Under the pieces are notes generated by a model, which was given only the letters and a program-made list of their open reading frames with translations, was not told the DNA's origin and made no database searches. From a virus (Duplodnaviria; Heunggongvirae; Uroviricota; Caudoviricetes), in IMG/VR virus record IMGVR_UViG_3300045988_047713, positions 1-30,652 of that record: a stretch of 30,652 nt of DNA. One strand, 5' to 3'. Below are positions 9,968 to 29,310 of this stretch, piece by piece (position 1 is the first letter of the stretch; each line of letters starts with the position of its first letter). The translations under genes and the position numbers were made by a program.

Positions 9968-10085
9968 ACATAGATTGCATCATGTTTATTTTTTAACCAA
10001 CCTTTCTCTATCTTATTCTTTTTATTACCTTTTTATAGATAACATAGAAAACATAGATAAATAGAAGAAGTAGTATAGAAAGATA
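9968..10085. repeat. AT-rich intergenic element, copy A of a ~105-110-bp duplicated sequence
   Basis: CATGTTTATTTTTTAACCAACCTTTCTCTATCTTATTCTTTTTATTACCTTTTTATAGA...ACATAGATAAATAGAAG is about 90 percent identical to 29201-29310. Confidence 0.8.
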
Positions 10086-10225
10086 GAGATAGTACATATA
10101 GTGTATTAGCTGTAAATAGAGCTAAAATAAAAGTCTGGGAGATACCTATTGTAATCTATGTTTTTATGCAAGTCTTTGAAATCATTGTGATTATTGGCTA
10201 CGTATTTATGTATGTGGTCGAAAAT

Positions 10226-10243
10226 TAGTGCATGTTGTGCATT
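10226..10243. promoter_or_regulatory. isolated operator copy (TTAGTGCATGTTGTGCATTA)
   Basis: Same palindromic core as the 9781-9955 array, about 100 bp upstream of TerS. Confidence 0.45.
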
Positions 10244-10348
10244 AACTGTAAACTTAATACTAACATTGTATTAGCTGTAAAACAGGGCGTGTAGACAACC
10301 CGTGGGTATCTGTGGGAAACTAATTTAAAATTTATGGGAGACAAATTT

Positions 10349-10984
10349 ATGAAAATTTCAGACCGGGCTAAAAGAGCTGCTCTGGAGTTAACAACCGATC
10401 AACTACGCTTCGCTAACCTGTGGTTAGATCGTGTCAATAACGGCTTCAGCAACGCTCAGTGCGTCTTACACGCTTATCCGGGGCATAAAGACCCTGACGC
10501 AGCTAAAGTCACCGCACACCGCCTCCTGTCGAATAGGAAGGTGTTGAACTATCTGGACGCGATGGGAAGTCATGCGCTTGAGTCTGTCGGGGAATCGTTA
10601 ACGAGTCGTGTCGAGTGGTGGAAACGAGCGGCAAGCACGGCTGAAGAATTACTGGAACCGTATTGTCAGCGCGTAATCGTCCCTGGTGAAGACGACACAG
10701 AAGCGAAACACCTGTGGGTGAACAGTACCGACGATATCCCCAGCCATCTTCAACAGTACGTAGTTTGCTACAAGCGTTACATGCTGGGCGGATACATTCT
10801 GGTGACGCGTGAATTGTTCGATCCGAAAACTCGTGCAAAAGCGTCTGAACAACTGGATAAAATCACCGGGAACAGTATCGACCGTGTGGAATTGTCTGGT
10901 GTGGTTGGTAACGTGGTTCAGAGTGTTCCTGAAGGTGCAACTATCGACGATATCGCGCAACTGTATCAGAAGGCGCTTAAATAG
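10349..10984 (+). CDS. terminase small subunit (TerS)
   Basis: 211 aa from ATG 10349 (GGGAGA RBS); N-terminus LTTDQLRFANLWLDRVNNGFSNAQCVLHAYPG...AHRLLSNRKVLNYL fits the small-terminase HTH pattern (LT.KQ.RF...A...AGYS...LL.N.KV). Confidence 0.65.
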   Translation: MKISDRAKRAALELTTDQLRFANLWLDRVNNGFSNAQCVLHAYPGHKDPDAAKVTAHRLLSNRKVLNYLDAMGSHALESVGESLTSRVEWWKRAASTAEELLEPYCQRVIVPGEDDTEAKHLWVNSTDDIPSHLQQYVVCYKRYMLGGYILVTRELFDPKTRAKASEQLDKITGNSIDRVELSGVVGNVVQSVPEGATIDDIAQLYQKALK

Positions 10985-10993
10985 GCGGTTGTT

Positions 10994-11028
10994 CCGGCTT
11001 AAATCGTGCCGGAAACCGTTTGCGTTTT
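10994..11028 (+). terminator. weak terminator-like hairpin downstream of TerS
   Basis: CCGGC-N9-GCCGG stem followed by a T-rich stretch (GCGTTTTCG); T-run is separated from the stem. Confidence 0.25.
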
Positions 11029-11098
11029 CGATAAACAAGGTTAGGTGGTGCAAGTGTACTGTTGAAGGTGTTAAGTTCGTCAGAGAGCGTTTTAGAAA

Positions 11099-11116
11099 GC
11101 CCGGAACTAACCGGGC
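11099..11116 (-). terminator. rho-independent terminator for the minus-strand rdgC operon
   Basis: Hairpin GCCCGG-AACTAA-CCGGGC; on the minus strand followed by TTTCTAAAA. Confidence 0.45.
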
Positions 11117-11178
11117 GTATGTTCATTATTCGTGATTATTACTACGTATCATCTGGTAGTTTTCAGCATCACTACGTT

Positions 11179-12093
11179 TCATCGTTTAGCCTCCCCACCC
11201 AAAGCAGTGATAAGTTGTTTGATCAGTGCCTGAAGTTCACCTGTCATCAGTACAAAATCAGCGTCAAATCGTGCCAGACTGTCTTCAAGGTCAATATCGT
11301 CGTTCTGGCACATCAGTTCGTCGCAGAATTTCACACGGTTTAACGTCATGCTGTCAGTTAGCGTAAACGTTACCCGCTGCTGCCAGTCCATCGCCAGCTT
11401 TGTAACGACTTTCCCGGCTTCAATATGCGTGGCTATTTCGTCACTGGTTAAATCCTGTTTTTTAACACGTGCAACACCGCCGTCAGTCAGGATCGCTTTC
11501 AGTTCCGCAGAATCACCCATTGTAAAACCTGTTGGCGCGTTTCCTGAACGTACCCACTCCGTTGTTGTCAGTTCAACAGGGTTTTCAGTTGTCAGTGGGA
11601 CTACAGGCAGACTACCCAGGGATTTACGCAACAGTGCTAATGCGTCTTCAGCCCGTTTAGCACTGGACGCATCAACCACGATCAACCTGTTAGTGATATC
11701 AATCCACAACTGTGTACGACTGTTTTTAACGAACGCTCGTGGTAACAGACTGTGTAACACTTCATCTTTCAGCGCGTCTTTCTCTGTTTTCTTCAGCTTA
11801 CGCGCCTGTTCAGCTTCCAGTTTGGCGATTCGCGCGTTCAGATGTTGTTTAATGACCGGACCCGGAATAATCTTTTCCTGTTTCTGGATGGTCAGCAGAT
11901 ATTGCCCGTTAGCCTGGTGAACCAGTGTATGATGTTGTTCAGTTGCCGGAACCCAACCAGTACGCGTCATATCCTGTGAACCGCACGGGGTAAATTGAAA
12001 CGCACACAGGCTGTCTTCCAGTGTTGGTAACTGGACCATTAATGCCATTGGGTTAGTCAGACGATAAATGATTGCGTTTTTAAAGAAGTTCAT
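11179..12093 (-). CDS. rdgC: recombination-associated protein RdgC homolog
   Basis: 304 aa; N-terminus [12 protein letters not shown] and overall length match bacterial RdgC (E. coli RdgC is about 303 aa, N-terminus MLWFKNLMVYRL as recalled); similarity judged from memory, not by search. Confidence 0.75.
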
Positions 12094-12290
12094 AGTTGTT
12101 TTCCTGTTATAACGTCAGTTAATGGTTTAAACGAATCATCGGTGATTGTTGAATTTAAATATTCGCAGACAGCTTTAACAATCCCAGCATGTGTCATTGG
12201 TTCATCTTTATATGACGACTCAAAACTAAACCCCGTGAATAGAATCTCACCACCATTATTAGTTACTGTTCCAAATCGTGTAATTTTCAT
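12090..12290 (-). CDS. hypothetical protein (66 aa)
   Basis: ORF with ATGA overlap to rdgC; same operon. Confidence 0.5.
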
Positions 12291-12292
12291 GA

Positions 12293-12487
12293 CTAGTCGA
12301 TATCCTGTGGATTGACTTTAACGGATGTTTGAATTGCTACAGAAGGTGAATAACCAATACAGGTAAACTCCACACATTCAGCTTCAACAATCAAACCTGT
12401 TTTAACAGCAGAGTTGATAGCCGTGTTTAATTCTGCTGTCAGACGTTTAATTTTATCCTGATGTTCTAATGCTTCAGACAGTTTCAT
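12293..12487 (-). CDS. hypothetical protein (64 aa)
   Basis: ATG at 12487 (MKLSEALEH...); the track start at 12496 is a TTG. Confidence 0.5.
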   Translation of the reverse strand: MKLSEALEHQDKIKRLTAELNTAINSAVKTGLIVEAECVEFTCIGYSPSVAIQTSVKVNPQDID

Positions 12488-12633
12488 GATAACCAATACC
12501 TCACTAAATTATTAGTTAGATTATCCAGCGCCAGAAAGAAATTGACAATGAATATGAGTCCTAACATTCCCACTAACCACGGTAATAGTTTAACGACCCA
12601 TAATGGTATTTTTGAAATCAGCCAGAAAATCAT
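12484..12633 (-). CDS. small membrane protein (49 aa)
   Basis: ATG 12633, hydrophobic MIFWLISKIPLWVVKLLPWLVGMLGLIFIV; ATGA coupling on both sides. Not in ORF track. Confidence 0.35.
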   Translation of the reverse strand: MIFWLISKIPLWVVKLLPWLVGMLGLIFIVNFFLALDNLTNNLVRYWLS

Positions 12634-12785
12634 TTCCTGTTCCTTCTTTTCTTCGCCTCGCGTCGGGCTTTTGCAATACCTGTTTTACGATGTGGTTGTT
12701 TACGGTCAGTAATAAGTCGTTGTGGTGGAATACCCCACAATGTGTTAGTGGAACTTAACAGTTTAATCGCGTAATCAAGAATCAT
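12630..12785 (-). CDS. small basic protein (51 aa)
   Basis: ATG 12785 with GGTGA RBS; C-terminal KARREAKKRRNRK. Not in ORF track. Confidence 0.3.
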   Translation of the reverse strand: MILDYAIKLLSSTNTLWGIPPQRLITDRKQPHRKTGIAKARREAKKRRNRK

Positions 12786-12892
12786 ACGTTCACCACTTTT
12801 AAATCAGGTGTCAGGCTACGATGGTCATGATGACCGTTCATGGTAAATGAGAAAGTGTAATCGCACTGTTCACCGTTGAACGTGAAGGGGAT

Positions 12893-13048
12893 TTAAAACC
12901 CTGTATCGTCAGTGATGCGAACTTTAACCGGGTATTCAGCTTGCGGATCGACCGCTACAACAGTACCGAACGGTTGAGATTTGCGACGTGCGAGAATTTC
13001 TAACAGTCGTGGACTGGTGATTTCTACGTGTTGACCAGTTTTAAACAT
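12893..13048 (-). CDS. small hypothetical protein (51 aa)
   Basis: Internal ATG 13048 with GGAG RBS; the track start at 13075 would lie at the predicted transcription start of promoter copy 4. Confidence 0.4.
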   Translation of the reverse strand: MFKTGQHVEITSPRLLEILARRKSQPFGTVVAVDPQAEYPVKVRITDDTGF

Positions 13049-13080
13049 GGTGATAACTCCAGTTGTTTTACACAAATTGA

Positions 13081-13124
13081 AGTCTATCTGATGATGTGTA
13101 AACCGTCAAGAATTATTTTAAATT
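13081..13124 (-). promoter_or_regulatory. conserved sigma70-type promoter, copy 4 (minus strand)
   Basis: -35 TTGACG (13109-13104), 17-bp spacer, -10 TAGACT (13086-13081), UP element TAAAATAATTC; drives the rdgC operon. Confidence 0.55.
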
Positions 13125-13299
13125 GTCCGTCACTGTCTGCAGCATAGCAAATGCCGTGACTGTATATTGTCGCAGTTCGTGTAATGCGTTGATAGTCTGA
13201 GCATTGGTTACGAACACGCAGGTCATACCCGGACTGTATAATCAGCCAGGTTGCAATGATGGCGAGTAATTTTAAAACGTATCTGAACATGTTCCACAC
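13084..13299 (-). CDS. small hydrophobic protein (71 aa), possible membrane/secreted
   Basis: AGGAG RBS upstream of ATG 13299; N-terminal hydrophobic LKLLAIIATWLIIQS. Confidence 0.5.
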   Translation of the reverse strand: MWNMFRYVLKLLAIIATWLIIQSGYDLRVRNQCSDYQRITRTATIYSHGICYAADSDGQFKIILDGLHIIR

Positions 13300-13351
13300 T
13301 CCTGTTTGATAGTTTCAGGGTAGTGTGGAACTGGTGAAGATGGTATAGGAT

Positions 13352-13750
13352 TTACGATAATTTAACAGTTAATCCGGCGTTGGTCAGAACGTTAGCGACA
13401 TCACGCACACCAGCTTCATATCCGTCTATAGGTGTTGCGGGTGATTTAACACAAATGCCAGCATGCTTTGGTAATTCAATTACCAACTGTTCCCGACTGG
13501 CTTTCCACATGTCCCACGCGCGATTCAAACGATCGCCTTCTTCCACGGTGTACTCGTCATCTTTCCTTAATTTTTCTAAGACGTTTTTTGGTGTTCCGTA
13601 TTTGTCTGAATAACACGCTTCAAACTGTTCACGACTCTTATCCACTTTTTCAACCCTCCACCCATATTTAGCACGATTCATAGCGGTCCGTTCATCATTC
13701 GTGGTGAACAGTACGCGCCCGGATTTATGACAAATGTTCCAAGTCGTCAT
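13352..13750 (-). CDS. hypothetical protein (132 aa)
   Basis: ORF track; no recognised motifs. Confidence 0.5.
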   Translation of the reverse strand: MTTWNICHKSGRVLFTTNDERTAMNRAKYGWRVEKVDKSREQFEACYSDKYGTPKNVLEKLRKDDEYTVEEGDRLNRAWDMWKASREQLVIELPKHAGICVKSPATPIDGYEAGVRDVANVLTNAGLTVKLS

Positions 13751-13802
13751 TTCGCTAATACACCAATAATGAAAATTAGCATGTAGAATAAAACATTACG
13801 GG

Positions 13803-13961
13803 TCATAATTCATAAACCTTAAAACTACCGCCTGAATAACGATGTTTATTACACAACTTACAACGGTGTTCCTGAGTGGCGTAATTACGTTCATCTCCGT
13901 GGATAGTACGATACAAATACCATTCGTGTTTGCAGAATAATCGTTTGAGAAATATCTTCAT
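13803..13961 (-). CDS. small Cys/His-containing protein (52 aa), zinc-finger-like
   Basis: ATG 13961 with AAGGTG RBS; CKHEW...HRCKLCNKH. Not in ORF track. Confidence 0.35.
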   Translation of the reverse strand: MKIFLKRLFCKHEWYLYRTIHGDERNYATQEHRCKLCNKHRYSGGSFKVYEL

Positions 13962-13968
13962 AGTTCAA

Positions 13969-14286
13969 TCACCTTTTTAACACATCACGACAATCACACA
14001 ATAGACGAACATATGTTAATTTACGTTCATCTAACAACGCCGCCATGTTGTTAGCCTCATTTGCGAGGAATTCTAGCGCGTCTTTTTCAGAACAAAAACA
14101 GTGATAAGAGTTTTTGAGTAATACACGACCTTTATCGCTGTAACGACATTTAACACGCCAACCTTTTGGTGTTTTATTTATAATCTCATATTGTTCAATA
14201 TAATGATGGACATCAAGAGCTTTATATTTATCACTACAAGTAGGTTTGCGGATAAACCACATGTTTTGGTTATCAGATACATTCAT
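13969..14286 (-). CDS. hypothetical protein (105 aa)
   Basis: Internal ATG at 14286 chosen because it overlaps the upstream stop; the track ORF extends to 14343. Confidence 0.45.
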   Translation of the reverse strand: MNVSDNQNMWFIRKPTCSDKYKALDVHHYIEQYEIINKTPKGWRVKCRYSDKGRVLLKNSYHCFCSEKDALEFLANEANNMAALLDERKLTYVRLLCDCRDVLKR

Positions 14287-14489
14287 TATTTGACTCCATG
14301 ACCTGGTGCAAAACAAACTGTATTGTTTTCTTTGAAAACCCAACCAGCTTTTTTAGCCTGTTTCAGACAATCACGAAAGTTTTTACCACCGAACGAAGTA
14401 ACCTCAGTTGCGAAAAATGGACCTTTAGGTTTTTTACATACGGCGCAATCACAGTAAAGGTCCATTGAATAACCACTAACAACCATCAA
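14286..14489 (-). CDS. small Cys-rich protein (67 aa)
   Basis: CDCAVCKK ... VCFAPGH; ATGA overlap with the upstream gene. Confidence 0.5.
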   Translation of the reverse strand: MMVVSGYSMDLYCDCAVCKKPKGPFFATEVTSFGGKNFRDCLKQAKKAGWVFKENNTVCFAPGHGVK

Positions 14490-14704
14490 TAACCCCTTTT
14501 AATCTTCCCCAATGCTTGTTGCACAATCTGCCAGGACGATAACATGAATAATTGCGCGTATTGTCCCAGTGCTAAATTTCGTGGTTTATCCTGGTAAGCG
14601 TAAATGGTCGCAATGTCATCAGCTTCCAGACGGATCCGCCACGGTGTCAGAGTTGGTTTATCACCCATGTTCGACGCGCTCCAGTAGTTCACGAATGTTT
14701 TCAA
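14486..14704 (-). CDS. hypothetical protein (72 aa; possible internal start at 14668)
   Basis: ORF track; overlaps the next ORF by 44 nt unless the internal Met is used. Confidence 0.45.
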   Translation of the reverse strand: MKTFVNYWSASNMGDKPTLTPWRIRLEADDIATIYAYQDKPRNLALGQYAQLFMLSSWQIVQQALGKIKRGY

Positions 14705-14984
14705 TTACACGTTGTTTTGTCTGAGTAGTGACACATACACCATCAGTGCGCCCAAAAGTTTCTAACACAGTTTGAAGTGCTTGATACATTTCAGGACTGT
14801 TTAACATTAATGACAGGTTACCCCGGAGTTCCTGGAGTTTTCCTTGTTCTTCGTTTGGTAAGTAACAAGGGTCTTCCATTTTAATAATCACTTGCGCGAT
14901 TGCCCCGTGGTCTGGTGATGAAATACTCACATGATTTTCAACCCATCCTTCATCTTTAAACCACGGTAATTGTGAACATTTCAT
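14661..14984 (-). CDS. hypothetical protein (107 aa)
   Basis: First gene downstream of promoter copy 5 on the minus strand. Confidence 0.5.
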   Translation of the reverse strand: MKCSQLPWFKDEGWVENHVSISSPDHGAIAQVIIKMEDPCYLPNEEQGKLQELRGNLSLMLNSPEMYQALQTVLETFGRTDGVCVTTQTKQRVIENIRELLERVEHG

Positions 14985-15214
14985 ACCTGTAACCCTCTTG
15001 TTTTTTGTTTAGTGACAAGATATCTCTTCAACCCGTCGCAACTAATTTCACAATCCCCGCAGGAACCACCATCCAACCAGATGATGCATAGTGTGTGATT
15101 TCGTGGGGTGAGTTACGCTTTATACTCACCGTAGCGCCTGACAATCAGCGGTATCTTCAGCCGGACAATTCCGGGTTACTACATACTTGGTCAGGTATCT
15201 TGTCTATGACAACA

Positions 15215-15258
15215 ACTATACAGATACATGAGCAATCTGTCAAGAATTATTTTAAACC
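15215..15258 (-). promoter_or_regulatory. conserved sigma70-type promoter, copy 5 (minus strand)
   Basis: -35 TTGACA (15243-15238), 17-bp spacer, -10 TATAGT (15220-15215), UP element; about 220-nt leader to ATG 14984. Confidence 0.55.
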
Positions 15259-15319
15259 TCTGTTACCACCTGTCACCCGTGGTAAACTGTACAGAACAGT
15301 TACAAACGGACCGATAATC

Positions 15320-17083
15320 ATGAATAAGTTTACTGGAAATATTCATAATTACCCGCGTTGGCGGGATGCCTACGCAAATGACGAACGTATCTGGCGAAAA
15401 GGTCAGCCACGACCGGATTATAAACAGTGTTACATTGACCGCATTAACCTGTTAAATCGTATGCGCACGGATCGGGCAATTGTCCCGGTGCTGAAAAAGT
15501 ATTACGAAACAAACCCGGTAGCGTTTATCCTCGACTGGGCGTTTACTTACGACCCGCGTAACGTCGGTACTGAGTACACGCCTAACATGCCTTTCTGCCT
15601 TTTCGAACGTCAGATCGACATGGTTCAGTTTGTTTATGAAGCGCTTGAAGACAAAGAGAAAGGACTTTGGGAAAAATCGCGAGACTATGGCGCGACCTGG
15701 GTAGCCTGTGGTTTGTCCGTATGGGCGTGGCTGTATCGTCCTGGTTCTTCAGTTGGCTGGGGATCACGTAAAGAACAGCTTGTTGATAAACTGGGCGACC
15801 CGGATAGTATTTTTGAAAAGATTCGCCAGATTATCCGCGCATTACCACCGGAATTACGCCCGGTCGGTCTGCGTGAAAAAGACCATCTGGTTTACATGAA
15901 ATGTATCAACCCAGAAAACGGTGCAACAATTACTGGTGAAGCTGGCGATAACATCGGTCGTGGTGGTCGTAAATCTGTCTATTTTCTCGACGAGGCAGCA
16001 CACGTAGATCGTCCTGAACTGATCGAAGCGTCGTTGTCAGCTAACACCAACGTTCGTATCGACATCAGTTCAGTTAACGGTGTTGGTAACGTTTTTTATC
16101 GTAATCGTAAAGCTGGTCTGGAATGGGAACCAGGTAAGAAATTACCCCGTGGTAAATTGCGTGTCATGGTTCTGGACTGGCGTGATCACCCGGCTAAAGA
16201 TGACGAATGGTATAAGCGAGAAAAACAATCGTTCGCTGAAAAAGGTTTACAGCATATTTTCGCACAGGAAGTTGACCGCGATTATGCCGCTGCTGTTCAG
16301 GGCGTGTTGATTAAAGCTGAATGGGTACGCGCTGCTTTTGACGCGTTCCGTGACACAGAATGGCGCAAAGCTAACGGACTACTTACACCAACAGGTCAGC
16401 GTATCGCCGGACAGGATGCCGCAGACGGTGGTGAAGACGCAAGCGCACTGGTAATTGCTCACGGTGTATTCCTGACACATCTGCAACTTGACCACAGGGG
16501 CGCTGAACTGGCTGCACCAGGAATGTTGACGATGGCTAATATGCTGGGTGTTGATGAATACTGGTACGAAGTTAACGGTGTTGGTACAGGCGTTAAAGTA
16601 GCGGCAAATGACCGGAAAGATACTCTACGCTTCCGTGTGCGCCCGTGGTTACCGAACGGAAAAGTGGTGGATCCAGGTGGTGATATTATCGGTGGTACGA
16701 AACCTGGCGATAAAGACCGTAAATCAAACAAAGATTATTTCTCAAATTATAAAGCACAGGCATCGTGGGCGTTACGCCTGCGATGTCAGCGAATTTATAA
16801 ATGGTATGTGGAAGGTCAACCACAGGATCCAGACGAAATTATTCTGATTGATCCATCACTGGAAAATGCACAACGGTTAGAGGCTGAGTTAAGTCAGCCA
16901 ACATATACCAGTAACGGTGCCGGGAAGATTGTGATCGACAAAAAACCAAATGGAAGTAAGTCGCCAAACTTTTTCGATGCTGCGGTTATTGCACTATCAC
17001 CAAAACGCACTGAATTTGTCGAAGAACCATTTACTGGTGGTGTGAATCCTGTTGGTACGCCTGATTACGGTGACATTTTTTAA
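15320..17083 (+). CDS. terminase large subunit (TerL)
   Basis: 587 aa from ATG 15320; ERQIDMV...GLWEKSRDYGATWVACGLSVWAWLY (Q-motif plus deviant Walker A), Walker B VYFLDEAAH, nuclease-domain acidic cluster GQDAADGGEDASALVIAHG. The in-frame extension to 15095 is rejected because it would encode across promoter copy 5. Confidence 0.8.
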   Translation: MNKFTGNIHNYPRWRDAYANDERIWRKGQPRPDYKQCYIDRINLLNRMRTDRAIVPVLKKYYETNPVAFILDWAFTYDPRNVGTEYTPNMPFCLFERQIDMVQFVYEALEDKEKGLWEKSRDYGATWVACGLSVWAWLYRPGSSVGWGSRKEQLVDKLGDPDSIFEKIRQIIRALPPELRPVGLREKDHLVYMKCINPENGATITGEAGDNIGRGGRKSVYFLDEAAHVDRPELIEASLSANTNVRIDISSVNGVGNVFYRNRKAGLEWEPGKKLPRGKLRVMVLDWRDHPAKDDEWYKREKQSFAEKGLQHIFAQEVDRDYAAAVQGVLIKAEWVRAAFDAFRDTEWRKANGLLTPTGQRIAGQDAADGGEDASALVIAHGVFLTHLQLDHRGAELAAPGMLTMANMLGVDEYWYEVNGVGTGVKVAANDRKDTLRFRVRPWLPNGKVVDPGGDIIGGTKPGDKDRKSNKDYFSNYKAQASWALRLRCQRIYKWYVEGQPQDPDEIILIDPSLENAQRLEAELSQPTYTSNGAGKIVIDKKPNGSKSPNFFDAAVIALSPKRTEFVEEPFTGGVNPVGTPDYGDIF

Positions 17084-17090
17084 ACAGTGT

Positions 17091-17120
17091 GGCGGGATTA
17101 TTCCCGTCATTTTCTTTTTT
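17091..17120 (+). terminator. rho-independent terminator after TerL
   Basis: Stem GGCGGGA / TCCCGTC (one G-U pair), 4-nt loop, followed by ATTTTCTTTTTT; the T-run doubles as the UP element of promoter copy 6. Confidence 0.5.
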
Positions 17121-17156
17121 AATTCTTGACAAATTACATTATAAATGTTTGTAAAT
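17112..17156 (+). promoter_or_regulatory. conserved sigma70-type promoter, copy 6 (plus strand), -10 ambiguous
   Basis: -35 TTGACA (17126-17131) with conserved flanking AATTC...AATTAC; candidate -10 TTGTAA/TGTAAA at 17149-17155. Confidence 0.45.
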
Positions 17157-17190
17157 TATCTGTTAGATTAATGTAACACGTCTATACTCC

Positions 17191-17207
17191 TGCAGGTAAC
17201 CAATCGG
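17191..17207 (+). promoter_or_regulatory. palindrome/hairpin in the 5' leader of the Gly-rich gene
   Basis: GGTAACC-AATC-GGTTAC (6-bp perfect arms), followed by the palindrome TTAATTAA; lies between the promoter and RBS CAGGAG. Confidence 0.35.
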
Positions 17208-17244
17208 TTACAGTTAATTAACATTCTCTCACAGGAGTTTCAAC

Positions 17245-17943: not shown

Positions 17944-17954
17944 TTGGTCAACTA

Positions 17955-17978
17955 AGCGCCTCTGTACGGGGCGCTTTA
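17955..17978 (+). terminator. weak terminator/attenuator-like hairpin between the Gly-rich and His-rich genes
   Basis: Stem AGCGCC / GGCGCT with 9-nt loop, followed by only TTT; may give partial termination or transcript stabilisation. Confidence 0.3.
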
Positions 17979-17993
17979 ACAGGAGATAAGAGT

Positions 17994-19602: not shown

Positions 19603-19607
19603 AATGA

Positions 19608-21276: not shown

Positions 21277-21295
21277 CGTGCAAAAAAACCATCAC

Positions 21296-21304: not shown

Positions 21305-21343
21305 ATACGTTAAGAACCGTAAACCGTATGGAGCCTGTAAAAC

Positions 21344-22699: not shown

Positions 22700-22705
22700 A
22701 TGAAA

Positions 22706-22733
22706 AAGGGACCGTTACTGGTCCCTTAATTTT
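22706..22733. terminator. bidirectional rho-independent terminator
   Basis: AAGGGACC-GTTACT-GGTCCCTT flanked by A-run upstream and T-run downstream; between convergent genes. Confidence 0.7.
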
Positions 22734-23065
22734 TACTTAGTTTCAGGCTGCACGATTGACAGTAATTTACTCGCTTCATCAACCGCAGTCTGAATACGAG
22801 TCTGTAACGGATAACTGTTGTTGATCGCACGTTCCAGCGTTTTATCAAGCAGTTGCAGTTTGACTTCGTCATCGCCAGTGAACGCGTACATATCAGCAAC
22901 GACTTCCTTAAACTGTGATGCTTGCTCAACAATAGTCGTGGTTACAATGTATTTCCAAACTTTGTTTAACAGTTTAAATTTCACTTCGTTGTCAGCAACT
23001 GCATCAACCAGAATTTCAGCAGCAGTCTTGTCATATTTAACAAGCTCAAGAATTTCAAAACGCAT
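22733..23065 (-). CDS. hypothetical protein (110 aa)
   Basis: ORF track. Confidence 0.5.
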   Translation of the reverse strand: MRFEILELVKYDKTAAEILVDAVADNEVKFKLLNKVWKYIVTTTIVEQASQFKEVVADMYAFTGDDEVKLQLLDKTLERAINNSYPLQTRIQTAVDEASKLLSIVQPETK

Positions 23066-23080
23066 TTAAGTCTTCTCCTG

Positions 23081-23425
23081 TCAGTTAACATACTTCGCGA
23101 TCAGTTTATCACAGTCCTCGCGACAGGTAGCATACTTAAACAGGTCACTAGCTGCTTCTGCCCGGTAGTCAGTATCAATGGTGTAATGTTCATTGACATA
23201 ATTATAGGCTGCAAGGTAGTTGCTGAACATCCCTGTAGTTACCACTTTCGGTTGTTCCCTTACGACCTTACCGTTAAACAGATATGCGATTAGCAGAATC
23301 AGACCACCGATCACAGGACTTGTGAGAAATGCGATAAAGAACCATACACCAGGGTTACGACCTGTTTGTTTGGCAACACCCGCGACAACCAGAGAGAAAA
23401 GAATCCATAAGATAGTGAATAACAT
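23081..23425 (-). CDS. membrane protein (114 aa, two N-terminal TM helices)
   Basis: Perfect AAGGAGG RBS; MLFTILWILFSLVVAGV and WFFIAFLTSPVIGGLILLIAYLF. Confidence 0.55.
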   Translation of the reverse strand: MLFTILWILFSLVVAGVAKQTGRNPGVWFFIAFLTSPVIGGLILLIAYLFNGKVVREQPKVVTTGMFSNYLAAYNYVNEHYTIDTDYRAEAASDLFKYATCREDCDKLIAKYVN

Positions 23426-23455
23426 GATTGTGTCCTCCTTTGTTTTGATGTTTGT

Positions 23456-23499
23456 AGGTTACACGTCCTTGTGTAATCCGTCAAGAATTATTTTAAATT
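23456..23499 (-). promoter_or_regulatory. conserved sigma70-type promoter, copy 8 (minus strand)
   Basis: -35 TTGACG (23484-23479), 17-bp spacer, -10 TAACCT (23461-23456), UP element. Confidence 0.5.
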
Positions 23500-23736
23500 A
23501 TCGTAGACAGGCGGTAACCCCATTGCGGCCTGTACAGACCGTTTTTCGTATTCCTCCCGAAGTTTCTGAAGTCGTTCAATACCGATGTCACAACCACGCA
23601 TAATATCAGCGCACAGGTCGTTGTAGGTCGCTTCAGATTGCTTGCTGTGTGGGTAATCAACACAGGATGGATCTGTAATAATGACTTTCGGCAGATACGC
23701 GACAGTATCGCCCATTGCGTTTTTAAATATCGTCAT
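23488..23736 (-). CDS. hypothetical protein (82 aa)
   Basis: Internal ATG 23736 chosen; the track ORF start at 23847 would overlap the upstream gene by 110 nt. Confidence 0.45.
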   Translation of the reverse strand: MTIFKNAMGDTVAYLPKVIITDPSCVDYPHSKQSEATYNDLCADIMRGCDIGIERLQKLREEYEKRSVQAAMGLPPVYDNLK

Positions 23737-23737
23737 T

Positions 23738-24202
23738 TTAGCACCGGTGATTAAGTTCCTGACCTGGTTGAACACGAGTACCACAACATTTACAAACATA
23801 GCGCCACTCAAAACCGGGTTGTGCTGCATAGTTACGGTAACCAGCATCGTAAAGTTGCTCTATCGCGTGAATAACAGATGTATTGTTATAGTTAGTAACC
23901 GAATTTCTCATTTCATCAATAACCTTTTCACGTTCTTTCGGAATAGGTCTGAAGTTTTCCGCGTTACCTACAATAAACGATTGTGTACCGTCATCAGGCT
24001 TTAACCATGTATCATCACCATGATGACCTAATACCGTCACCTTTACCCAATCGTGATCAACGCTTGCTAACCACTCGCATACTGTACCGACAGGTGGTAA
24101 ACCTTCACCATCCCATTGTTGTTTTTCATTCACACAGTCAGGACAAATACCATGTTTTTGGTCACTGTTATCACGCATGTGTTTTTCACAAAAACTTTTC
24201 AT
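23738..24202 (-). CDS. Cys-rich protein (154 aa) with WDG..LPPVG domain
   Basis: CPDC...C near the N-terminus and CKCCGTRVQPGQELNHRC at the C-terminus; domain shared with the ORF at 27551-27781. Confidence 0.5.
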   Translation of the reverse strand: MKSFCEKHMRDNSDQKHGICPDCVNEKQQWDGEGLPPVGTVCEWLASVDHDWVKVTVLGHHGDDTWLKPDDGTQSFIVGNAENFRPIPKEREKVIDEMRNSVTNYNNTSVIHAIEQLYDAGYRNYAAQPGFEWRYVCKCCGTRVQPGQELNHRC

Positions 24203-24528
24203 AAATACGACCCCACAATTGCTGCACAGTTGACGATCGCTAAACGCGTTGCTTTTTCACGGTCTTCTCCGTGGTTAACTGGTTGCTTATAACTAACACC
24301 AGTGTCAGGGTTATTAACAGTCACTTCGTTGTCACGAACATCCAGATCCATGTACATGTTAACCATCAGACTGAAAGCATCCTCATTACGTGTAAGAGGG
24401 TTCCACAGGCGACCAATACCTATATCAATACCTTCGTTTATGTAACGTTCGTCGTACGCGACGTAATATTTACCCTGGATTTCAGCAGCCCGTGCTGCGT
24501 TGACTAATAAATCACGATTGTTCATCAT
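24199..24528 (-). CDS. hypothetical protein (109 aa)
   Basis: ORF track; coupled. Confidence 0.5.
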   Translation of the reverse strand: MMNNRDLLVNAARAAEIQGKYYVAYDERYINEGIDIGIGRLWNPLTRNEDAFSLMVNMYMDLDVRDNEVTVNNPDTGVSYKQPVNHGEDREKATRLAIVNCAAIVGSYL

Positions 24529-25028
24529 ACCCGTCCTGTTGATCCAAACCCGCCATTACGCTGACTATCAACATCTGGTAATTCTTCCACTTCAACCAGA
24601 TTAACAGGTTCAACACGTTCAACCATAAGCTGACAAACGCGTTCACCGTCTGCGATAGTCTGTAATTTCTGCCCGTGGTTAGTCAGCGTAACGTAGTATT
24701 CTTCTTTATAATCACGATCACCGATACCCACACAGTTGATCAGTGACAAACCATTTTTAAGACTCATGCCGGAACGCGGGTAGAATTTAATGCAATATCC
24801 GTTATCAACTGACATTTTCAGACCAGTGGGGATCATAGCGCGGTCGCCGGGCCATAATGCGATTGTTCCTGCAACAACCGGACGTTCCACTTTAGCGCCT
24901 GATTCTGTGAATATGGTTACCGATTCTTCCCACAGACAAGCACGAACGTCTAACCCTGCGCTGTCTGGTGTTGCACGTGTCGGAAGTTCAGCGTGGGGTG
25001 TTAGTTTTTTGATATACAGGTTAGTCAT
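24525..25028 (-). CDS. dut: dUTP diphosphatase (trimeric dUTPase)
   Basis: 167 aa; motifs AGLDV, YPRSGMS, GIGDRDY, C-terminal GGFGSTGR. Confidence 0.8.
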   Translation of the reverse strand: MTNLYIKKLTPHAELPTRATPDSAGLDVRACLWEESVTIFTESGAKVERPVVAGTIALWPGDRAMIPTGLKMSVDNGYCIKFYPRSGMSLKNGLSLINCVGIGDRDYKEEYYVTLTNHGQKLQTIADGERVCQLMVERVEPVNLVEVEELPDVDSQRNGGFGSTGRV

Positions 25029-25189
25029 TGTTTAATTCCTCTTGTTTTACTAGTAAAAAAATCAATTTCAAGAGAACCTTGTCGATCTAAAATCTCGGTG
25101 TATTTACGGACACGAATTGGTAAAAGTTCACCACTATCAATCAGATCCGCGATTTCTCGCAATTGTTTGGCAACATCTTCATTAGTCAT
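25025..25189 (-). CDS. small hypothetical protein (54 aa)
   Basis: ATG 25189 with GAGGA RBS; stop overlaps the dUTPase ATG. Not in ORF track. Confidence 0.35.
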   Translation of the reverse strand: MTNEDVAKQLREIADLIDSGELLPIRVRKYTEILDRQGSLEIDFFTSKTRGIKQ

Positions 25190-25223
25190 TGTTTGATTCC
25201 TCAGTGTGTTTCGTTCGTGACAA

Positions 25224-25268
25224 ATGTTAGTGTGATCGCTTGCAATGTGTCAAGAATTATTTTAAACT
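25224..25268 (-). promoter_or_regulatory. conserved sigma70-type promoter, copy 9 (minus strand); possible divergent partner for the gene at 25297
   Basis: -35 TTGACA (25253-25248), 18-bp spacer, -10 TAACAT (25229-25224). Plus strand: TTGCAA (25240-25245), 17 bp, TAAACT (25263-25268), about 30 nt upstream of ATG 25297. Confidence 0.5.
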
Positions 25269-25296
25269 TCTGTCAACGTTAACCAATGAGGAATAA

Positions 25297-26055
25297 ATGA
25301 TGTTTGAACATCCGTGGAACATACCTGCATATGATGCTGAAAGTGAAAAACAATCACTTGACTATCAAATGAAAACACAACAAGTAGACTGGAGTGAAGC
25401 GCCAGACTGGGCTACATGTGTTGTTCTTAATAAGACAACAAACACTTTTGCATGGTCTGATGGTTCAATGTACGCACCAATTTTAAGAAATCCGCCACAA
25501 ATTATGGAGAATGCTGATGACTTTGAAATCTTTGAAAAACGCCCTTGTGGTCCAGCAACACCTGTCAAAACAAAACTGTTAATGACACCGAAAGCCCGTG
25601 GTAATACTTACGAAGAATTCATTGCGACCGGGTGGAATGACGACCAGTTAGTCGAACATGGTTATGCTGTTCGTATTACAGACAAACGTTCCTGGTCACC
25701 AATGACCGTCGGAACTGAAACAATTACACCACCGTCAAACTGTCGGTGCACATTCACACCCGTTCAACAACCATCAACAGCGTCTGATTTACTGAAACAG
25801 GCTGAACAGCTACTGACAGAACGTGGTAAGCAGTATGACACGTCTAGTCAGGAACGTTCGTCAGCTAAAATAGTTGCTGCGTTTAACACAATTACCGGGC
25901 GCGATTTAACACCAGGTGAAGGATGGTTGTTCCTGATGTTGTTAAAAGCGGTTCGTTTCTATTCCAACACTGAAACACCACATCGTGACAGTCTGGAAGA
26001 CCTGATCAGCTATGCTGCATTACACGCAGAGGAATATCTTAACAATGAACGGTGA
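25297..26055 (+). CDS. hypothetical protein (252 aa)
   Basis: GAGGA RBS; no confidently recognised domain. Confidence 0.5.
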   Translation: MMFEHPWNIPAYDAESEKQSLDYQMKTQQVDWSEAPDWATCVVLNKTTNTFAWSDGSMYAPILRNPPQIMENADDFEIFEKRPCGPATPVKTKLLMTPKARGNTYEEFIATGWNDDQLVEHGYAVRITDKRSWSPMTVGTETITPPSNCRCTFTPVQQPSTASDLLKQAEQLLTERGKQYDTSSQERSSAKIVAAFNTITGRDLTPGEGWLFLMLLKAVRFYSNTETPHRDSLEDLISYAALHAEEYLNNER

Positions 26056-26227
26056 ACAAGCATTCGACCTTCTGGTTAAATACGACATTATTGTTATTCA
26101 CTGTGACCGTGAACAAATCGTTTTCACGGACGATCTTTGTTATGAAGAACCTTATGACGGTGATAAACGGTCTGCCACGATTCGGTTAATCGAACGTGTG
26201 GCACGTGACAGAGGGGAACTATTATAA
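26045..26227 (+). CDS. hypothetical protein (60 aa)
   Basis: ATG 26045 overlapping the upstream stop; the track ORF starts at an upstream in-frame codon. Confidence 0.4.
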   Translation: MNGEQAFDLLVKYDIIVIHCDREQIVFTDDLCYEEPYDGDKRSATIRLIERVARDRGELL

Positions 26228-26421
26228 TGGTTCAAACTATTTCTGAATTACTACCCACCGTTTATGGCAACGTGACAGAACTTGCCAGGCGGATTGGGTG
26301 TAACAAAGCGACAGTTTATAAATATATGGATGACACCAATGGTGAATTTCACGCGGTAGTGAATGGTAAGTTGATGGTCAGACCAGGTTTTAAAGGACGT
26401 TATACTCGTGACAAAAGATGA
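26227..26421 (+). CDS. small helix-turn-helix DNA-binding protein (64 aa)
   Basis: TELARRIGCNKATVYKYM resembles an HTH recognition helix pair. Confidence 0.5.
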   Translation: MVQTISELLPTVYGNVTELARRIGCNKATVYKYMDDTNGEFHAVVNGKLMVRPGFKGRYTRDKR

Positions 26422-26551
26422 AAAATTATTACGTGAACTTGAAATAGACTACGAACGAGCGCAAAAAGCGTTAAAGTTTCTGGAAGAACAGATCCGCGAA
26501 GTTAAGAACCGCATTCAGGGAACTGAAAAACGTAATCTTCCACGCCCGTAA
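26408..26551 (+). CDS. small coiled-coil-like peptide (47 aa), GTG start
   Basis: Open frame filling the gap before the terminator; LRELEIDYERAQKALKFLEEQIREVKNRI. Weak. Confidence 0.25.
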   Translation: MTKDEKLLRELEIDYERAQKALKFLEEQIREVKNRIQGTEKRNLPRP

Positions 26552-26555
26552 CACG

Positions 26556-26564
26556 TGATATAAT
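26556..26564 (+). promoter_or_regulatory. extended -10 promoter for the MuF-like gene
   Basis: TG-A-TATAAT (TG 26556-26557, TATAAT 26559-26564); predicted start falls inside the left arm of the adjacent terminator hairpin. Confidence 0.45.
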
Positions 26565-26566
26565 CG

Positions 26567-26594
26567 GCCTCAGTGTGTTAACTGAGGCTTTTTT
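26567..26594 (+). terminator. rho-independent terminator abutting the MuF-like start codon
   Basis: GCCTCAG-N8-CTGAGGC followed by TTTTTT, then ATG at 26595; the right arm contains the GAGG Shine-Dalgarno of the downstream gene. Confidence 0.6.
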
Positions 26595-27554
26595 ATGGCT
26601 ACTAAAGACCCATACCCGGATATTTCAGACAAGTATGACGCTCGCATTCGCGAAGCACTTGATGTTGTGTGGGAAAACGTGCGTCGTAGTGAGTCGTTAG
26701 CTAACCTGGAATACATCATTGAAACTCAGGGTATTACCGGGCTACTCCCCATTCTTGAAACACTCCCTGATGAACTTAGTGCACAGTTGCGCCCGGTTAT
26801 TGAAGACGCGATCGCCGAATCAGGTCGTGTAGTCGTTCAGGTTTTACCGAAAGCGGCTGTGACAGGTCCGGTTGTGTTCAGTCTGGTCACCCCACAGGTC
26901 AGTACATACATCAACAACTATGTCGGACAACTGATCCGTGAAGTCAGTGACGAAACAGTCAAAGCTGTTCAGATTGCTGTTAACCAGGGTGTGGTAACCG
27001 GACGAAATCCGCGTCAGATAGCCCGTGATTTTCGATCATCAATAGGGTTAACCACACGGCAAGAAATGACGGTTCAACGTCTGCGATCAGCACTGGAAAA
27101 AGGTGAAGCAGGTTATATGAACAGTCTGACCACTGTTACAGACAGTGCGAAGAACGCTGTAAGTGCCGGGAAACTATCACAGGCGAAGATTGACCAGATA
27201 ATCGAACAGACACGCTTGCGTTACGTAAAACAGCGTACAGAGACAATAGCGCGTACTGAATCACTTCGTGCTGTATCAGTTGGTCAGGATCAGGCAATAC
27301 GTCAGGGACAGATTACCGGGGCTGTTAGTAATGAATTGCTGAAGCGCTGGTTATATAGAAAGGATGGTCGGACACGTGATGCGCATATTTCCACGGGTGA
27401 AACGAACGGTTGGATACCAATGGACAGACCGTTTTCAACGCCGTTAGGACCACTTATGTTTCCTCGTGATCCTAACGGTAGTGCCGCTAACGTGATTAAT
27501 TGTCGTTGCAGGGTACAGTATAGTTTGCCGGAAGATATAGGTTCATTGGGTTAA
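26595..27554 (+). CDS. head morphogenesis protein, Mu F / SPP1 gp7 family
   Basis: 319 aa; C-terminal region ...NGWIPMDRPF...ANVINCRCRVQY matches the conserved end of MuF-like minor head proteins. Confidence 0.7.
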   Translation: MATKDPYPDISDKYDARIREALDVVWENVRRSESLANLEYIIETQGITGLLPILETLPDELSAQLRPVIEDAIAESGRVVVQVLPKAAVTGPVVFSLVTPQVSTYINNYVGQLIREVSDETVKAVQIAVNQGVVTGRNPRQIARDFRSSIGLTTRQEMTVQRLRSALEKGEAGYMNSLTTVTDSAKNAVSAGKLSQAKIDQIIEQTRLRYVKQRTETIARTESLRAVSVGQDQAIRQGQITGAVSNELLKRWLYRKDGRTRDAHISTGETNGWIPMDRPFSTPLGPLMFPRDPNGSAANVINCRCRVQYSLPEDIGSLG

Positions 27555-27781
27555 TCAGGTTCACGCCAGTCAAGAGGTCGCACATCACATAACAGACGAA
27601 CATTATCTTCAAATTTTATGTTTATCCTGTGATGTGCAGTATCATTTTCATAAACAGAAGGCCATATTTCATAACCCTGAACAGTTCGTGCCACCCACTT
27701 GTTAACGCTTGCCAGATGGATCAACACTTCACAACCAACTGGAGGAAGGTTTTTACCATCCCAAATCTGTTTCATTCCCAT
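27551..27781 (-). CDS. small protein with WDG..LPPVG domain (76 aa)
   Basis: QIWDGKNLPPVGCEV...W parallels QQWDGEGLPPVGTVCEW in the ORF at 23738-24202. Confidence 0.45.
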   Translation of the reverse strand: MGMKQIWDGKNLPPVGCEVLIHLASVNKWVARTVQGYEIWPSVYENDTAHHRINIKFEDNVRLLCDVRPLDWREPD

Positions 27782-27786
27782 AGCGG

Positions 27787-28062
27787 TTACTCCTGTTTTT
27801 CACCACAGAACGGACAATAAGACATTTTGATGTTGGTTCCCAGGCGTGTGAAGTTCTTCGCCAGTTCACCGTTTTTCTTTTTAGCACGGTATGCAAGACG
27901 ATATTTCAACATAACGTGAATTTTACCAGACGTCAGACCGAAACACTGATTATCCCAGCCCACTTTATCAAACAGGTTAGTGCTGACTTCCGAACCTACT
28001 GGTACTTTTTCCATCAGACGTTTTTGAAGTTCGTCACCAATTTTTTTCATACAATCACACAT
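27787..28062 (-). CDS. zinc-ribbon protein (91 aa)
   Basis: N-terminal CDC and C-terminal CPFCG; GAGGT RBS. Confidence 0.5.
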   Translation of the reverse strand: MCDCMKKIGDELQKRLMEKVPVGSEVSTNLFDKVGWDNQCFGLTSGKIHVMLKYRLAYRAKKKNGELAKNFTRLGTNIKMSYCPFCGEKQE

Positions 28063-28223
28063 TACGCGTACCTCGATAGTCGTCTTAATTTAACGATCAA
28101 CCTTGTGACTTTACTCCAGTCAGATTCAGTAAAATCGTCCACATCTTTAGCCCATAACTCATTGACATGTCGTGGGTTATATGGTTCTTTCTTGACAGGC
28201 TGTTTCCGTTTCTTTTTACCCAT
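28062..28223 (-). CDS. small basic protein (53 aa)
   Basis: ATG 28223; MGKKKRKQPVKK...; TAATG overlap with the downstream gene. Not in ORF track. Confidence 0.3.
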   Translation of the reverse strand: MGKKKRKQPVKKEPYNPRHVNELWAKDVDDFTESDWSKVTRLIVKLRRLSRYA

Positions 28224-28226
28224 AGG

Positions 28227-28610
28227 TTATTCCCCAGGGTGACGGATATTCAGATCCGGGAGAATTTGCATCGGGTTAAACGTAACACGATAACGATACT
28301 GATCTGTTGGTGAAGGGTCTATTTGTTCAATGAAATAAGTTACCTCCGTGGTTAACCCCATAAAGTGTTTCTTAACGTCGTTCGGACCAGTTTTACAGGT
28401 GATTTCGATCTCTTTGCTAGTGTTCTCACGGGCACAACGACCTTCGATAGACAAAAGATACTCACCGTTACGAACGTTATAGAAAACGATACGACGATTT
28501 ACTTCAAAGTTAGCTGCAGCGGTTGCAACGTTACGACTGGCAACATCAGCAGCATTATCACAGGCTGTCAAGGTTGTTGTCAGTAATGCACACAGGATCA
28601 GTTTCTTCAT
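28227..28610 (-). CDS. lipoprotein (127 aa)
   Basis: Signal peptide MKKLILCALLTTTLTAC with lipobox LTAC. Confidence 0.6.
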   Translation of the reverse strand: MKKLILCALLTTTLTACDNAADVASRNVATAAANFEVNRRIVFYNVRNGEYLLSIEGRCARENTSKEIEITCKTGPNDVKKHFMGLTTEVTYFIEQIDPSPTDQYRYRVTFNPMQILPDLNIRHPGE

Positions 28611-28625
28611 TTTAGTGTCTCGGAG

Positions 28626-29009
28626 TTATTTAATGATTAATGTTGGTTGTAAGTCTTCTTCGTACCACGTCCAACCAATACACGCACCATCTTCAGCATC
28701 AACATATGGTTTCAACCAATCGATAAATTGTTCAATCTCACCACCATAATTTTTAATATCACTACGACTAAAAACATATTGAGTATCGGTGAAATCAAAT
28801 TTAGGACAACTATTTATTACTTCCGGGTGATGATAAAAACTGCTACAACTACCAATAAAATTCCATCTGGGAAGACTGAAAAACTTATGTTGTGGTAGTT
28901 TCTCTGGTTCTTTTTCACCACAGAACATGTGTGCAATAATAGCTTTCACATCCACGGGTGCATCTACTTTAATCTGACACTTCAACACTAATTCGGTATA
29001 CATTCCCAT
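28626..29009 (-). CDS. hypothetical protein (127 aa)
   Basis: ATG 29009 with GAGGA RBS; the track start at 29084 lies inside promoter copy 10. Confidence 0.5.
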   Translation of the reverse strand: MGMYTELVLKCQIKVDAPVDVKAIIAHMFCGEKEPEKLPQHKFFSLPRWNFIGSCSSFYHHPEVINSCPKFDFTDTQYVFSRSDIKNYGGEIEQFIDWLKPYVDAEDGACIGWTWYEEDLQPTLIIK

Positions 29010-29055
29010 TTTCACATCCTCATTCACCAGCAACCCATTGTCGCTCCCTGTGATA

Positions 29056-29099
29056 AAGATATACCACAGTTTGCAATCCGTCAAGAATTATTTTAAAGA
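29056..29099 (-). promoter_or_regulatory. conserved sigma70-type promoter, copy 10 (minus strand)
   Basis: -35 TTGACG (29084-29079), 17-bp spacer, -10 TATCTT (29061-29056), UP element. Confidence 0.55.
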
Positions 29100-29101
29100 T
29101 A

Positions 29102-29188
29102 CAGCTAATACAGAACGTGTACTAACTGTACATGGTTTTACATAGGTTTCATGATTTTGAGTTGCAGCTAATACACGTTCTGTATTAG
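29102..29188. promoter_or_regulatory. two palindromic operator-like sites (CTAATACA-N5-TGTATTAG family)
   Basis: 29102-29128 (CAGCTAATACAGAACGTGTACTAA) and 29167-29188 (GCTAATACACGTTCTGTATTAG, perfect 8-bp arms); architecture related to the TAGTGCACGTTGTGCATTA sites at 9781-9955. Confidence 0.5.
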
Positions 29189-29200
29189 TAGATCATAAAT

Positions 29201-29310
29201 TCATAGATTTCGTCATGTTTATTTTTTAACCAACCCTTCTCTATCTTATTCTTTTTATTACCTTTTTATAGAAAACATAATAAACATAGATAAATAGAAG
29301 AGTAGTATAA
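29201..29310. repeat. AT-rich intergenic element, copy B of the duplicated sequence
   Basis: About 90 percent identical to 9968-10085 with two small indels. Confidence 0.8.

Follow-up and report, generated by a model that had tools for sequence, protein, structure and literature searches.

Genes and features at the two loci

We analysed a stretch of 30,652 nt from the IMG/VR virus record IMGVR_UViG_3300045988_047713 (Caudoviricetes; positions 1 to 30,652 of the record), hereafter the window, in which an AT-rich, non-coding segment of about 100 bp (the core) occurs twice, some 19 kb apart and each time accompanied by palindromic sites (dyads). By sequence match the window belongs to a 9NA-like siphophage (Sashavirus/Nonanavirus), its closest relatives being the Escherichia coli phages AVIO78A, BDX09P1, PJ16 and KarinMuster_Bas82 (96-97% identity), followed by the Salmonella phages Sasha, Sergei, Solent, SP069 and 9NA (84-87%) and by Klebsiella phages (~81%). 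We consider it very probable that core and dyads together constitute a functional, cis-acting and protein-bound DNA module that is conserved across this phage family. The molecular biology of the 9NA-like phages (siphophages of Salmonella, E. coli and Klebsiella, some of them proposed for biocontrol) is essentially unstudied, and the accessible literature defines no origin, late-gene control element or regulator for them.

The first copy (locus 1) lies in a 560-bp gap between gpL, a solitary leftward gene, and terS, the small terminase gene, and its core ends approximately 250 bp upstream of the latter. The second copy (locus 2), which is not adjacent to a small terminase gene, has on one side a leftward operon with a strongly conserved sigma-70-type promoter motif and on the other side rightward genes. 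Each core is thus placed between divergently oriented genes, and flanking promoters in both directions were found at locus 2 only. The features of the two loci are as follows.

8919-9773, minus strand: gpL, candidate dyad-binding protein (phrog_25538, function unknown; likely start ATG at 9737)
9790-9955: left dyad array, six 19-bp sites between the gpL start and the core (starting at 9790, 9829, 9860, 9884, 9916 and 9937)
9969-10072: AT-rich core copy 1, locus 1, upstream of terS (94% identical to copy 2, 21% GC)
10090-10108: right-flank dyad directly after core copy 1, followed by GCTGTAAA (pattern scan)
10226-10273: two terS-proximal dyads (10226-10244 and 10255-10273), CTGTAAA after each (pattern scan)
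10334-10984, plus strand: terS, small terminase (phrog_51; annotated as terS in relatives)
29056-29098, minus strand: sigma-70-type promoter with the family motif TAAAATAATTCTTGACGGATTGCA, left boundary of locus 2 (conserved in all relatives)
29106-29187: two locus-2 dyads (29106-29124 and 29169-29187) between the leftward promoter and core copy 2 (pattern scan)
29202-29305: AT-rich core copy 2, locus 2, upstream of the head-assembly operon (94% identical to copy 1)
29303-29321: degenerate relic of the right-flank dyad, TAGTATA-AGTAG-TATAAGT, followed by TGCTGTAAG (aligns with 10090-10108)
29384-29430, plus strand: rightward copy of the TAAAATAATTCTTGACGGATTGCA-family promoter motif, ahead of a DUF723-like open reading frame (ORF; E. 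coli-phage group only)
29778-30188, plus strand: XkdF-like prohead protease (PF14550, E = 9e-8), the first conserved head-operon gene downstream of locus 2

The gene at 29455, which a first, sequence-only reading of the window had called a head gene, is this small DUF723-like ORF (so annotated in the relative PDP46, and lacking a Pfam match here), inserted ahead of the protease gene at 29778. Neither the ORF nor the rightward promoter that precedes it is present at locus 2 in 9NA, Sasha or the Klebsiella phages. The ORF spans 29455-29781 (also L021) and carries 21-bp tandem repeats (PVTTAVE-type), the copy number of which varies between genomes.

The AT-rich core is very probably a cis-acting DNA element

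The repeat finder matched 9969-10068 with 29202-29301 at 94% identity over 100 nt without a gap, and pairwise alignment carried the match to about 10072/29305, beyond which come a 20-nt indel and then weaker similarity that includes the degenerate palindrome at 29303-29321. The sequence-only reading had described two segments (9968-10085 and 29201-29310) of about 90% identity; the repeat is real, and only the end coordinates 10085 and 29310 overrun its ungapped part. Since no other two-copy family in the window comes close (all span at most 34 nt at 63-84% identity), the core repeat is not a product of chance. A search for further copies, as that reading had proposed, found both the core motif and the dyads confined to the same two loci in the complete 57.8-kb genome of AVIO78A.

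The two cores are the most AT-rich 100-bp stretches of the window, and also its least stable ones as duplexes (nearest-neighbour, 100 bp), copy 1 ranking lowest (-104 kcal/mol) and copy 2 second-lowest (-105.6 kcal/mol), against a window mean of -134.4 kcal/mol (sd 7.0). The same holds for the whole AVIO78A genome, where no 100-bp stretches are richer in AT or less stable than the two cores (z = 4.5 and 4.4). The third least stable 100-bp stretch of that genome (50731-50830, L017; z = 3.7) is found in an intergenic gap of the early rightward region and could be another candidate unwinding site. The cores are furthermore strand-asymmetric, with a purine fraction of 0.20 that is followed by one of 0.65-0.71 (0.71 in copy 1). 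In copy 1 a T/C-rich half (~9985-10030) precedes a purine-rich half in which ATAGA is repeated from 10035 onwards (spacings of 9, 9, 8, 14 and 8 nt); more than half of the plus-strand ATAGA occurrences in the window (12 of 22) fall inside the two cores, about 9 bp apart, 8 of the 22 being in copy 1.

A small RNA was among the four functions that the sequence-only reading had offered for the element, and the length of the intergenic stretch, as well as an annotated 47-aa ORF that overlaps locus 2 in the relative Bas82, would suit a small RNA or micro-peptide gene. Single-sequence folds of the core were, however, no better than those of shuffled sequences on either strand (z-scores from -1.7 to +0.5), RNAalifold returned a consensus of 0 pairs for 8 diverse copies, and no Rfam family matched the core at the gathering threshold (two miRNA matches at E up to 1 were due to chance). 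Stop codons interrupt all six frames of both core copies. A TTG-initiated frame of 29 codons at locus 1 was considered as a source of a peptide and rejected, the start codon being missing at locus 2. We therefore regard an RNA or micro-peptide gene as scarcely credible.

The suggestion that the element is a late-promoter region is also weakened. Matches to sigma-70 promoters in the cores were no commoner than in shuffled sequences and none was common to both copies, while no terminator-like site fell inside the core, scan counts being likewise no higher than in shuffles. Moreover, the element stands at only two of at least six rightward late gene clusters, as it is absent from those of terL, portal and tail. 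Because the RNA, peptide and plain sigma-70 promoter readings all fail, we take the core to be a cis-acting element that operates at the level of DNA.

Dyads change together with the DNA-binding domain of gpL

Scanning the window for TARTRCA-N5-TGYAYTA (at most 2 mismatches) gave 11 matches where 1.8 were expected; nine are clustered at locus 1 (9790-10273), two at locus 2 (29106 and 29169), and none was found elsewhere. The related palindromes noticed beside both copies in the sequence-only reading are hence genuine, and more numerous (11 sites of 19 bp) than it had recognised. In the relatives the dyad positions persist with other sequences: the left array is present in 9NA, in the Klebsiella-type phages and in three further lineages (with other dyad sequences), the right-flank dyad has a counterpart at the same position in 9NA, L033 and L031, and type-matched dyads occupy the locus-2 positions corresponding to 29106 and 29169.

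The adjacent gene encodes a protein with a variable N-terminal XRE/Cro-like helix-turn-helix (HTH) domain of about 60 residues, a conserved middle part, a linker of seven EPPVARV units and a conserved C-terminus. The linker corresponds to a perfect 21-bp tandem repeat (seven copies at 9023-9211), present in 4 to 8 copies among relatives. The structure model of gpL is good for residues 1-60 only, which form a four-helix domain (pLDDT ~90), and the fold matches of this domain (Foldseek) are weak and all of the XRE-type HTH class, none of them having E < 0.2. An exhaustive profile search with gpL retrieved its own family alone (12 representatives among 1.84 billion) and no homologues outside the phage group, and both Pfam (at E up to 10) and a profile search of PDB sequences yielded noise. 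A 16-residue match to 'DNA_Packaging_2' was discounted as such noise.

Six types of the gpL N-terminal domain could be distinguished, each of them paired with its own adjacent dyad sequence, while the rest of gpL, TerS and the AT-rich core are conserved.

Type A (window, Sasha, L028): dyad TAGTGCA-N5-TGCATTA
Type B (9NA, L033): dyad TAACAC-N3-5-GTGTTA
Type C (Klebsiella type): dyad CTTACCA-N3-TGGTAAG
Type D (P0003/L038): dyad TAATACTAT-N-ATAGTRTTA
Type E (P0012/L048): dyad AACCAA-N3-TGGTT
Type F (P0013/L049): dyad ATACCAGATGTGTAT

Type D represents a clean cassette swap, in which the N-terminal domain and the dyads alone differ and type-A sequence lies on both sides. At locus 1 physical linkage could produce such pairing; the locus-2 dyads, 19 kb away from gpL, match the gpL type in four of the five lineages (E. 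coli group, 9NA, L033/L026 and Klebsiella phages). The co-variation with the HTH domain, which is the sole link of gpL to the dyads, supports the proposal of a regulator binding platform, and because of it the dyads appear to behave as sites for a regulator-like DNA-binding protein, with gpL as the candidate.

Two other candidate binders were rejected. TerS was ruled out as the reader of the dyads, as this protein varies very little and the few differences at its N-terminus bear no relation to the dyad type. A ParB-like protein is encoded in some of the relatives, and since the window has no ParB-like gene it is not the common binder.

The two-locus module is conserved across the phage family

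The two-locus layout recurs in the Salmonella, E. coli and Klebsiella relatives, and the parts are arranged in the same manner at both loci (phage-type-specific dyads, followed by a T-rich tract that is conserved and by three 9-bp ATAGATAGT-type repeats). Such conservation in related phages agrees with the idea, put forward from the window alone, that the two non-coding segments share a function.

Syntenic copies of core 2 are found in 9NA, SP069, Sasha and the Klebsiella phages, and the intergenic region of locus 2 can be aligned across E. coli, Salmonella and Klebsiella phages with its parts in one fixed order: the leftward promoter motif; two sites of ~15-19 bp that differ between lineages, each followed by a conserved CTG(A/T)AAC; ACATAGAT; the T-rich tract (TTTTTATTA..TTTT); and three 9-bp TATAGATAG-type units. 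BLAST of the window against the Klebsiella phages detected the core and the promoter motif, and not the sites that lie between them. The architecture of locus 1 is common to 9NA, L033 (a metagenomic 9NA relative), the Klebsiella-type L031, L035 and Carvaje, and the lineages L048 and L049, all having a left array of lineage-specific sites, a somewhat shorter AT-rich core with ATAGATAGT repeats, and two further sites, one on the right flank and one next to the ribosome-binding region of terS. The recurrence of this architecture across lineages indicates that the two-locus module is ancestral to the group.

Within the E. coli/Sasha lineage (15 copies) the loci show 0 fixed differences and 6 shared polymorphisms, from which we conclude that sequence has recently been exchanged between the copies (homogenisation). 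The same figures could speak for a neutral duplication, or for a gene-conversion tract without a function of its own; yet the T-rich tract and the ATAGATAGT repeats are retained at both loci even in the Klebsiella phages and in two further metagenomic lineages, where the dyads have wholly changed, and the conservation of synteny and of the order of parts extends across genera. Neutrality is for these reasons very improbable, and even when it is pooled with the RNA and peptide genes the three explanations remain improbable.

In a distant relative (L027/L051, IMGVR_UViG_3300036785_000282), with a protease 72% identical, the leftward operon upstream of the protease gene is missing, and between the head-morphogenesis and protease genes we observed three ATACCG-N3-CGGTAT dyads, many GTGAAAC/GTTTCAC heptamers (TGAAAC) and an AT-rich centre. 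By pattern scan, the dyads of this phage occur at one locus only.

A candidate origin-like module and the readings that compete with it

Of the four functions proposed from the window alone (regulator binding platform, late-promoter region, duplicated origins, small RNA), duplicated origins best explain all features together; in particular, a reading of the origin type alone accounts for the dyads, the core and the duplication at once. We tentatively favour, as a possibility and not as an established function, that the core serves as the DNA-unwinding element (DUE) of an iteron-plus-DUE module that resembles an origin and is present twice per genome, with gpL as its specificity factor. The layout of the loci, their conservation, the co-variation of the dyads with the gpL domain, and the non-coding character and extreme duplex instability of the core are shown, and from there we infer that gpL would bind the dyads, that the core would melt and that replication may start at it. 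In such a scheme gpL would occupy the phage-type-specific dyads on both sides of the core as dimers; divergent transcription on the two sides, which would concentrate negative supercoiling on the core, would act with the bound protein array to open the strands (in the T-rich tract and the three 9-bp ATAGATAGT-type repeats), and the D5-type primase-helicase of the phage would then be loaded at the opened core. A cluster of binding sites and an adjacent AT-rich region of low stability are both present, and no initiator of a known family was found: among the phage genes are those of a primase-polymerase/D5-type helicase and of an SF2 helicase, and none for a recognisable initiator protein.

A further step, which we regard as doubtful, is that the HTH domain of gpL and the dyads act as a swappable 'address' cassette that gates the core at both loci, so that a single protein-DNA system would couple the initiation of replication to the onset of packaging and of head-gene expression, the diversification into at least six specificity types being the outcome of rivalry among co-infecting relatives or of satellites hijacking the sites. 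If true, a lytic phage family would possess an incompatibility-like system of origin or pac specificity, operated by a protein family without known relatives.

Several observations weigh against an origin. No relation of gpL to any known initiator was found in Pfam, in PDB sequences or among significant fold matches, and XRE-type HTH proteins, to which it belongs, are mostly transcription regulators. The GC skew mirrors gene orientation and is uninformative about an origin. The dyads at 10226-10273 adjoin the terS ribosome-binding region, a position that fits gene control better than replication initiation, and at locus 2 the conserved blocks run from the core to the start of the downstream protease gene, which suggests a promoter or leader role. 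Sasha, Sergei and Solent combine type-A dyads at locus 1 with SP069-like sites at locus 2, and this mismatch implies that matching at locus 2 is common but dispensable. Lastly, five GenBank records (9NA, Sasha, Sergei, Solent and Carvaje) were opened within or beside the locus-1 element, and these openings may reflect a mapped pac site.

Some of these points would suit an early/late switch, in which gpL is an autoregulated transcription factor, the operator arrays control its own leftward promoter as well as the rightward promoters of terS and of the head operon, and the core is bendable or upstream-activating DNA, or an unconventional promoter, between looping operators. An HTH gene does stand beside multiple dyad operators, with six matched specificity types, and the arrangement of the XRE-like gpL, divergent from terS with the operators in between, resembles that of a repressor, its operators and the lytic genes. 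In every type the operators adjoin the terS ribosome-binding region; a TATGAT/TATGTT box (10157-10162), which all lineages conserve at both loci, follows the right-flank operator at a distance of ~70 bp; the E. coli-phage group has a degraded box (TATACG) at locus 2 and has acquired a consensus sigma-70 promoter just downstream of it; and the two module copies face the late gene downstream of them in the same orientation. A switch nevertheless leaves the conservation of the core sequence itself unexplained, the core has no -35/-10 pair above chance, the other late clusters do without the element, and an activator role at locus 2 is hard to square with the viable mismatch of the Sasha type. On balance we judge a switch to be rather unlikely, while still a serious contender.

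The record openings bear on packaging. The pac site of headful phages is usually immediately upstream of terS, as locus 1 is, and the core could be a binding or bending platform for TerS, with locus 1 as the pac region that starts the headful series and locus 2 as a non-cleaved TerS-binding copy or a relic. TerS and the core are conserved across lineages while the dyads vary, and five deposited genomes from at least three groups were opened inside the locus-1 core or within 60 bp of it; the opening points differ, however, by up to ~170 bp and may be arbitrary. 9NA is reported to be virulent, to package its DNA in headfuls starting at a pac site, and to show one pac fragment (PMC4153490), whereas the shared element is present twice per genome. 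It follows that the shared core is not sufficient for cleavage, and that the pac determinant, if it is here, resides in the part specific to locus 1. Locus 2 is, in addition, the more widely detectable copy. We hold this explanation to be unlikely.

Among the accessible papers that cite the 2019 study of Zeng and colleagues, in which 9NA packaging was reportedly mapped, none gives pac coordinates. A description of the two-copy element was not found in the accessible literature, a set that excludes the likeliest place for one (Zeng et al. 2019, J Virol 93:e00848-19), and a prior description is possible.

Comparison with known systems

An AT-rich core flanked by specific binding sites is a familiar class of element; what distinguishes the present one is a private protein family, the DNA-binding domain of which is swapped together with its sites as a cassette. 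The lambdoid ori-lambda has four dyad-symmetric iterons for the O protein beside an AT-rich region, and O/ori pairs come in specificity types. The module described here is similar in that an array of ~19-bp dyads stands directly beside a strand-asymmetric AT-rich region, and in that the sites and the N-terminal DNA-binding domain change together, as in lambda O/ori pairs, the AT-rich part and the remainder of the protein being conserved. It differs from the lambdoid origin in having its sites outside the gene and on both sides of the AT-rich core, in its presence twice per genome, in the lack of sequence similarity between gpL and O-type initiators, and in that the replicative helicase is the D5-type primase-helicase of the phage instead of the host DnaB.

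Origins at two loci are known from SPP1 (oriL/oriR) and P4 (ori/crr), and in SaPI the ori consists of iterons flanking an AT-rich region. The likeness to the first two lies in the two separated copies per genome of initiator sites with an AT-rich region, and that to SaPI in the sites on both sides of the AT-rich segment and in the specificity-matched pairing (Rep/ori). The iterons of P4 and SaPI are bound by the helicase-primase itself; the candidate binder in the present case is an HTH protein of its own, gpL.

The pac region of SPP1, with pacL, pacC and pacR lying ahead of the small terminase gene and within it, likewise offers AT-rich DNA with repeated motifs directly upstream of terS in a headful phage. 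The element shared by the two loci differs in having a second copy 19 kb away at the head operon, and the variable dyads do not track TerS. With the immunity modules of the cI/Cro type the locus shares a divergent XRE-like HTH gene beside multiple dyad operators, domain and sites being exchanged as a cassette. Unlike these modules, it has 9-12 sites instead of 3, a second, unlinked cluster of sites, and a gpL that is devoid of a peptidase or other known repressor C-terminal domain; the phage family is, moreover, reported to be virulent (PMC4153490).

The conserved two-locus cis module thus comes with a candidate trans factor, gpL, and its six natural specificity variants are ready-made swaps. 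Should the cores prove to be origins or a pac platform, they would determine how these phages can be engineered, how recombination or interference among co-infecting relatives can be predicted, and how assemblies are to be read.

Other motifs and assembly breaks

The leftward promoter of locus 2 is one member of a wider set. A motif of 26-33 nt, TAAAATAATTCTTGACGGATTACA, occurs in 11 copies in the window (leftward at 1216, 1279, 13095, 15229, 21247, 23470, 25239 and 29070; rightward at 6583, 17114 and 29384) and in 14 copies in the AVIO78A genome. It unites a UP-like tract rich in A/T with a -35 hexamer (TTGACR) that is followed 17 nt downstream by a -10 hexamer, the conservation of the spacer hinting at an additional bound factor; several copies read TTGCAA-N17-TAAACT on the opposite strand.

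A second motif, ACCCGTGG, is present in 7 copies in the window (0.9 expected). Two of them are intergenic (10298-10305 and 15275-15282), 23-45 nt upstream of the start codons of terS and terL, and a one-base variant, ACCCTGTGG (29421-29429), precedes the locus-2 operon by a comparable distance. The unaltered motif stands ahead of the protease gene in 9NA, Sasha and the Klebsiella phages. It may act as a leader or promoter motif of late genes. The mechanically called ORF at 15095-17083 overcalls terL, in that the leftward promoter motif at 15229 falls inside it and the start annotated in relatives is at ~15320. Between the leftward recombination operon and terL we also observed a GC-rich, non-coding stretch of 245 bp (14985-15228) with hairpin-like sequence.

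Owing to the 100-bp two-copy repeat, assemblies of relatives from short or 454 reads are interrupted precisely where the two copies lie (L023/L034, IMG/VR 3300030464; SP-062 contigs KC139633/35/36; L038), and one genome is in two contigs (41.8 and 15.7 kb), the ends of which are at locus 2 and locus 1.

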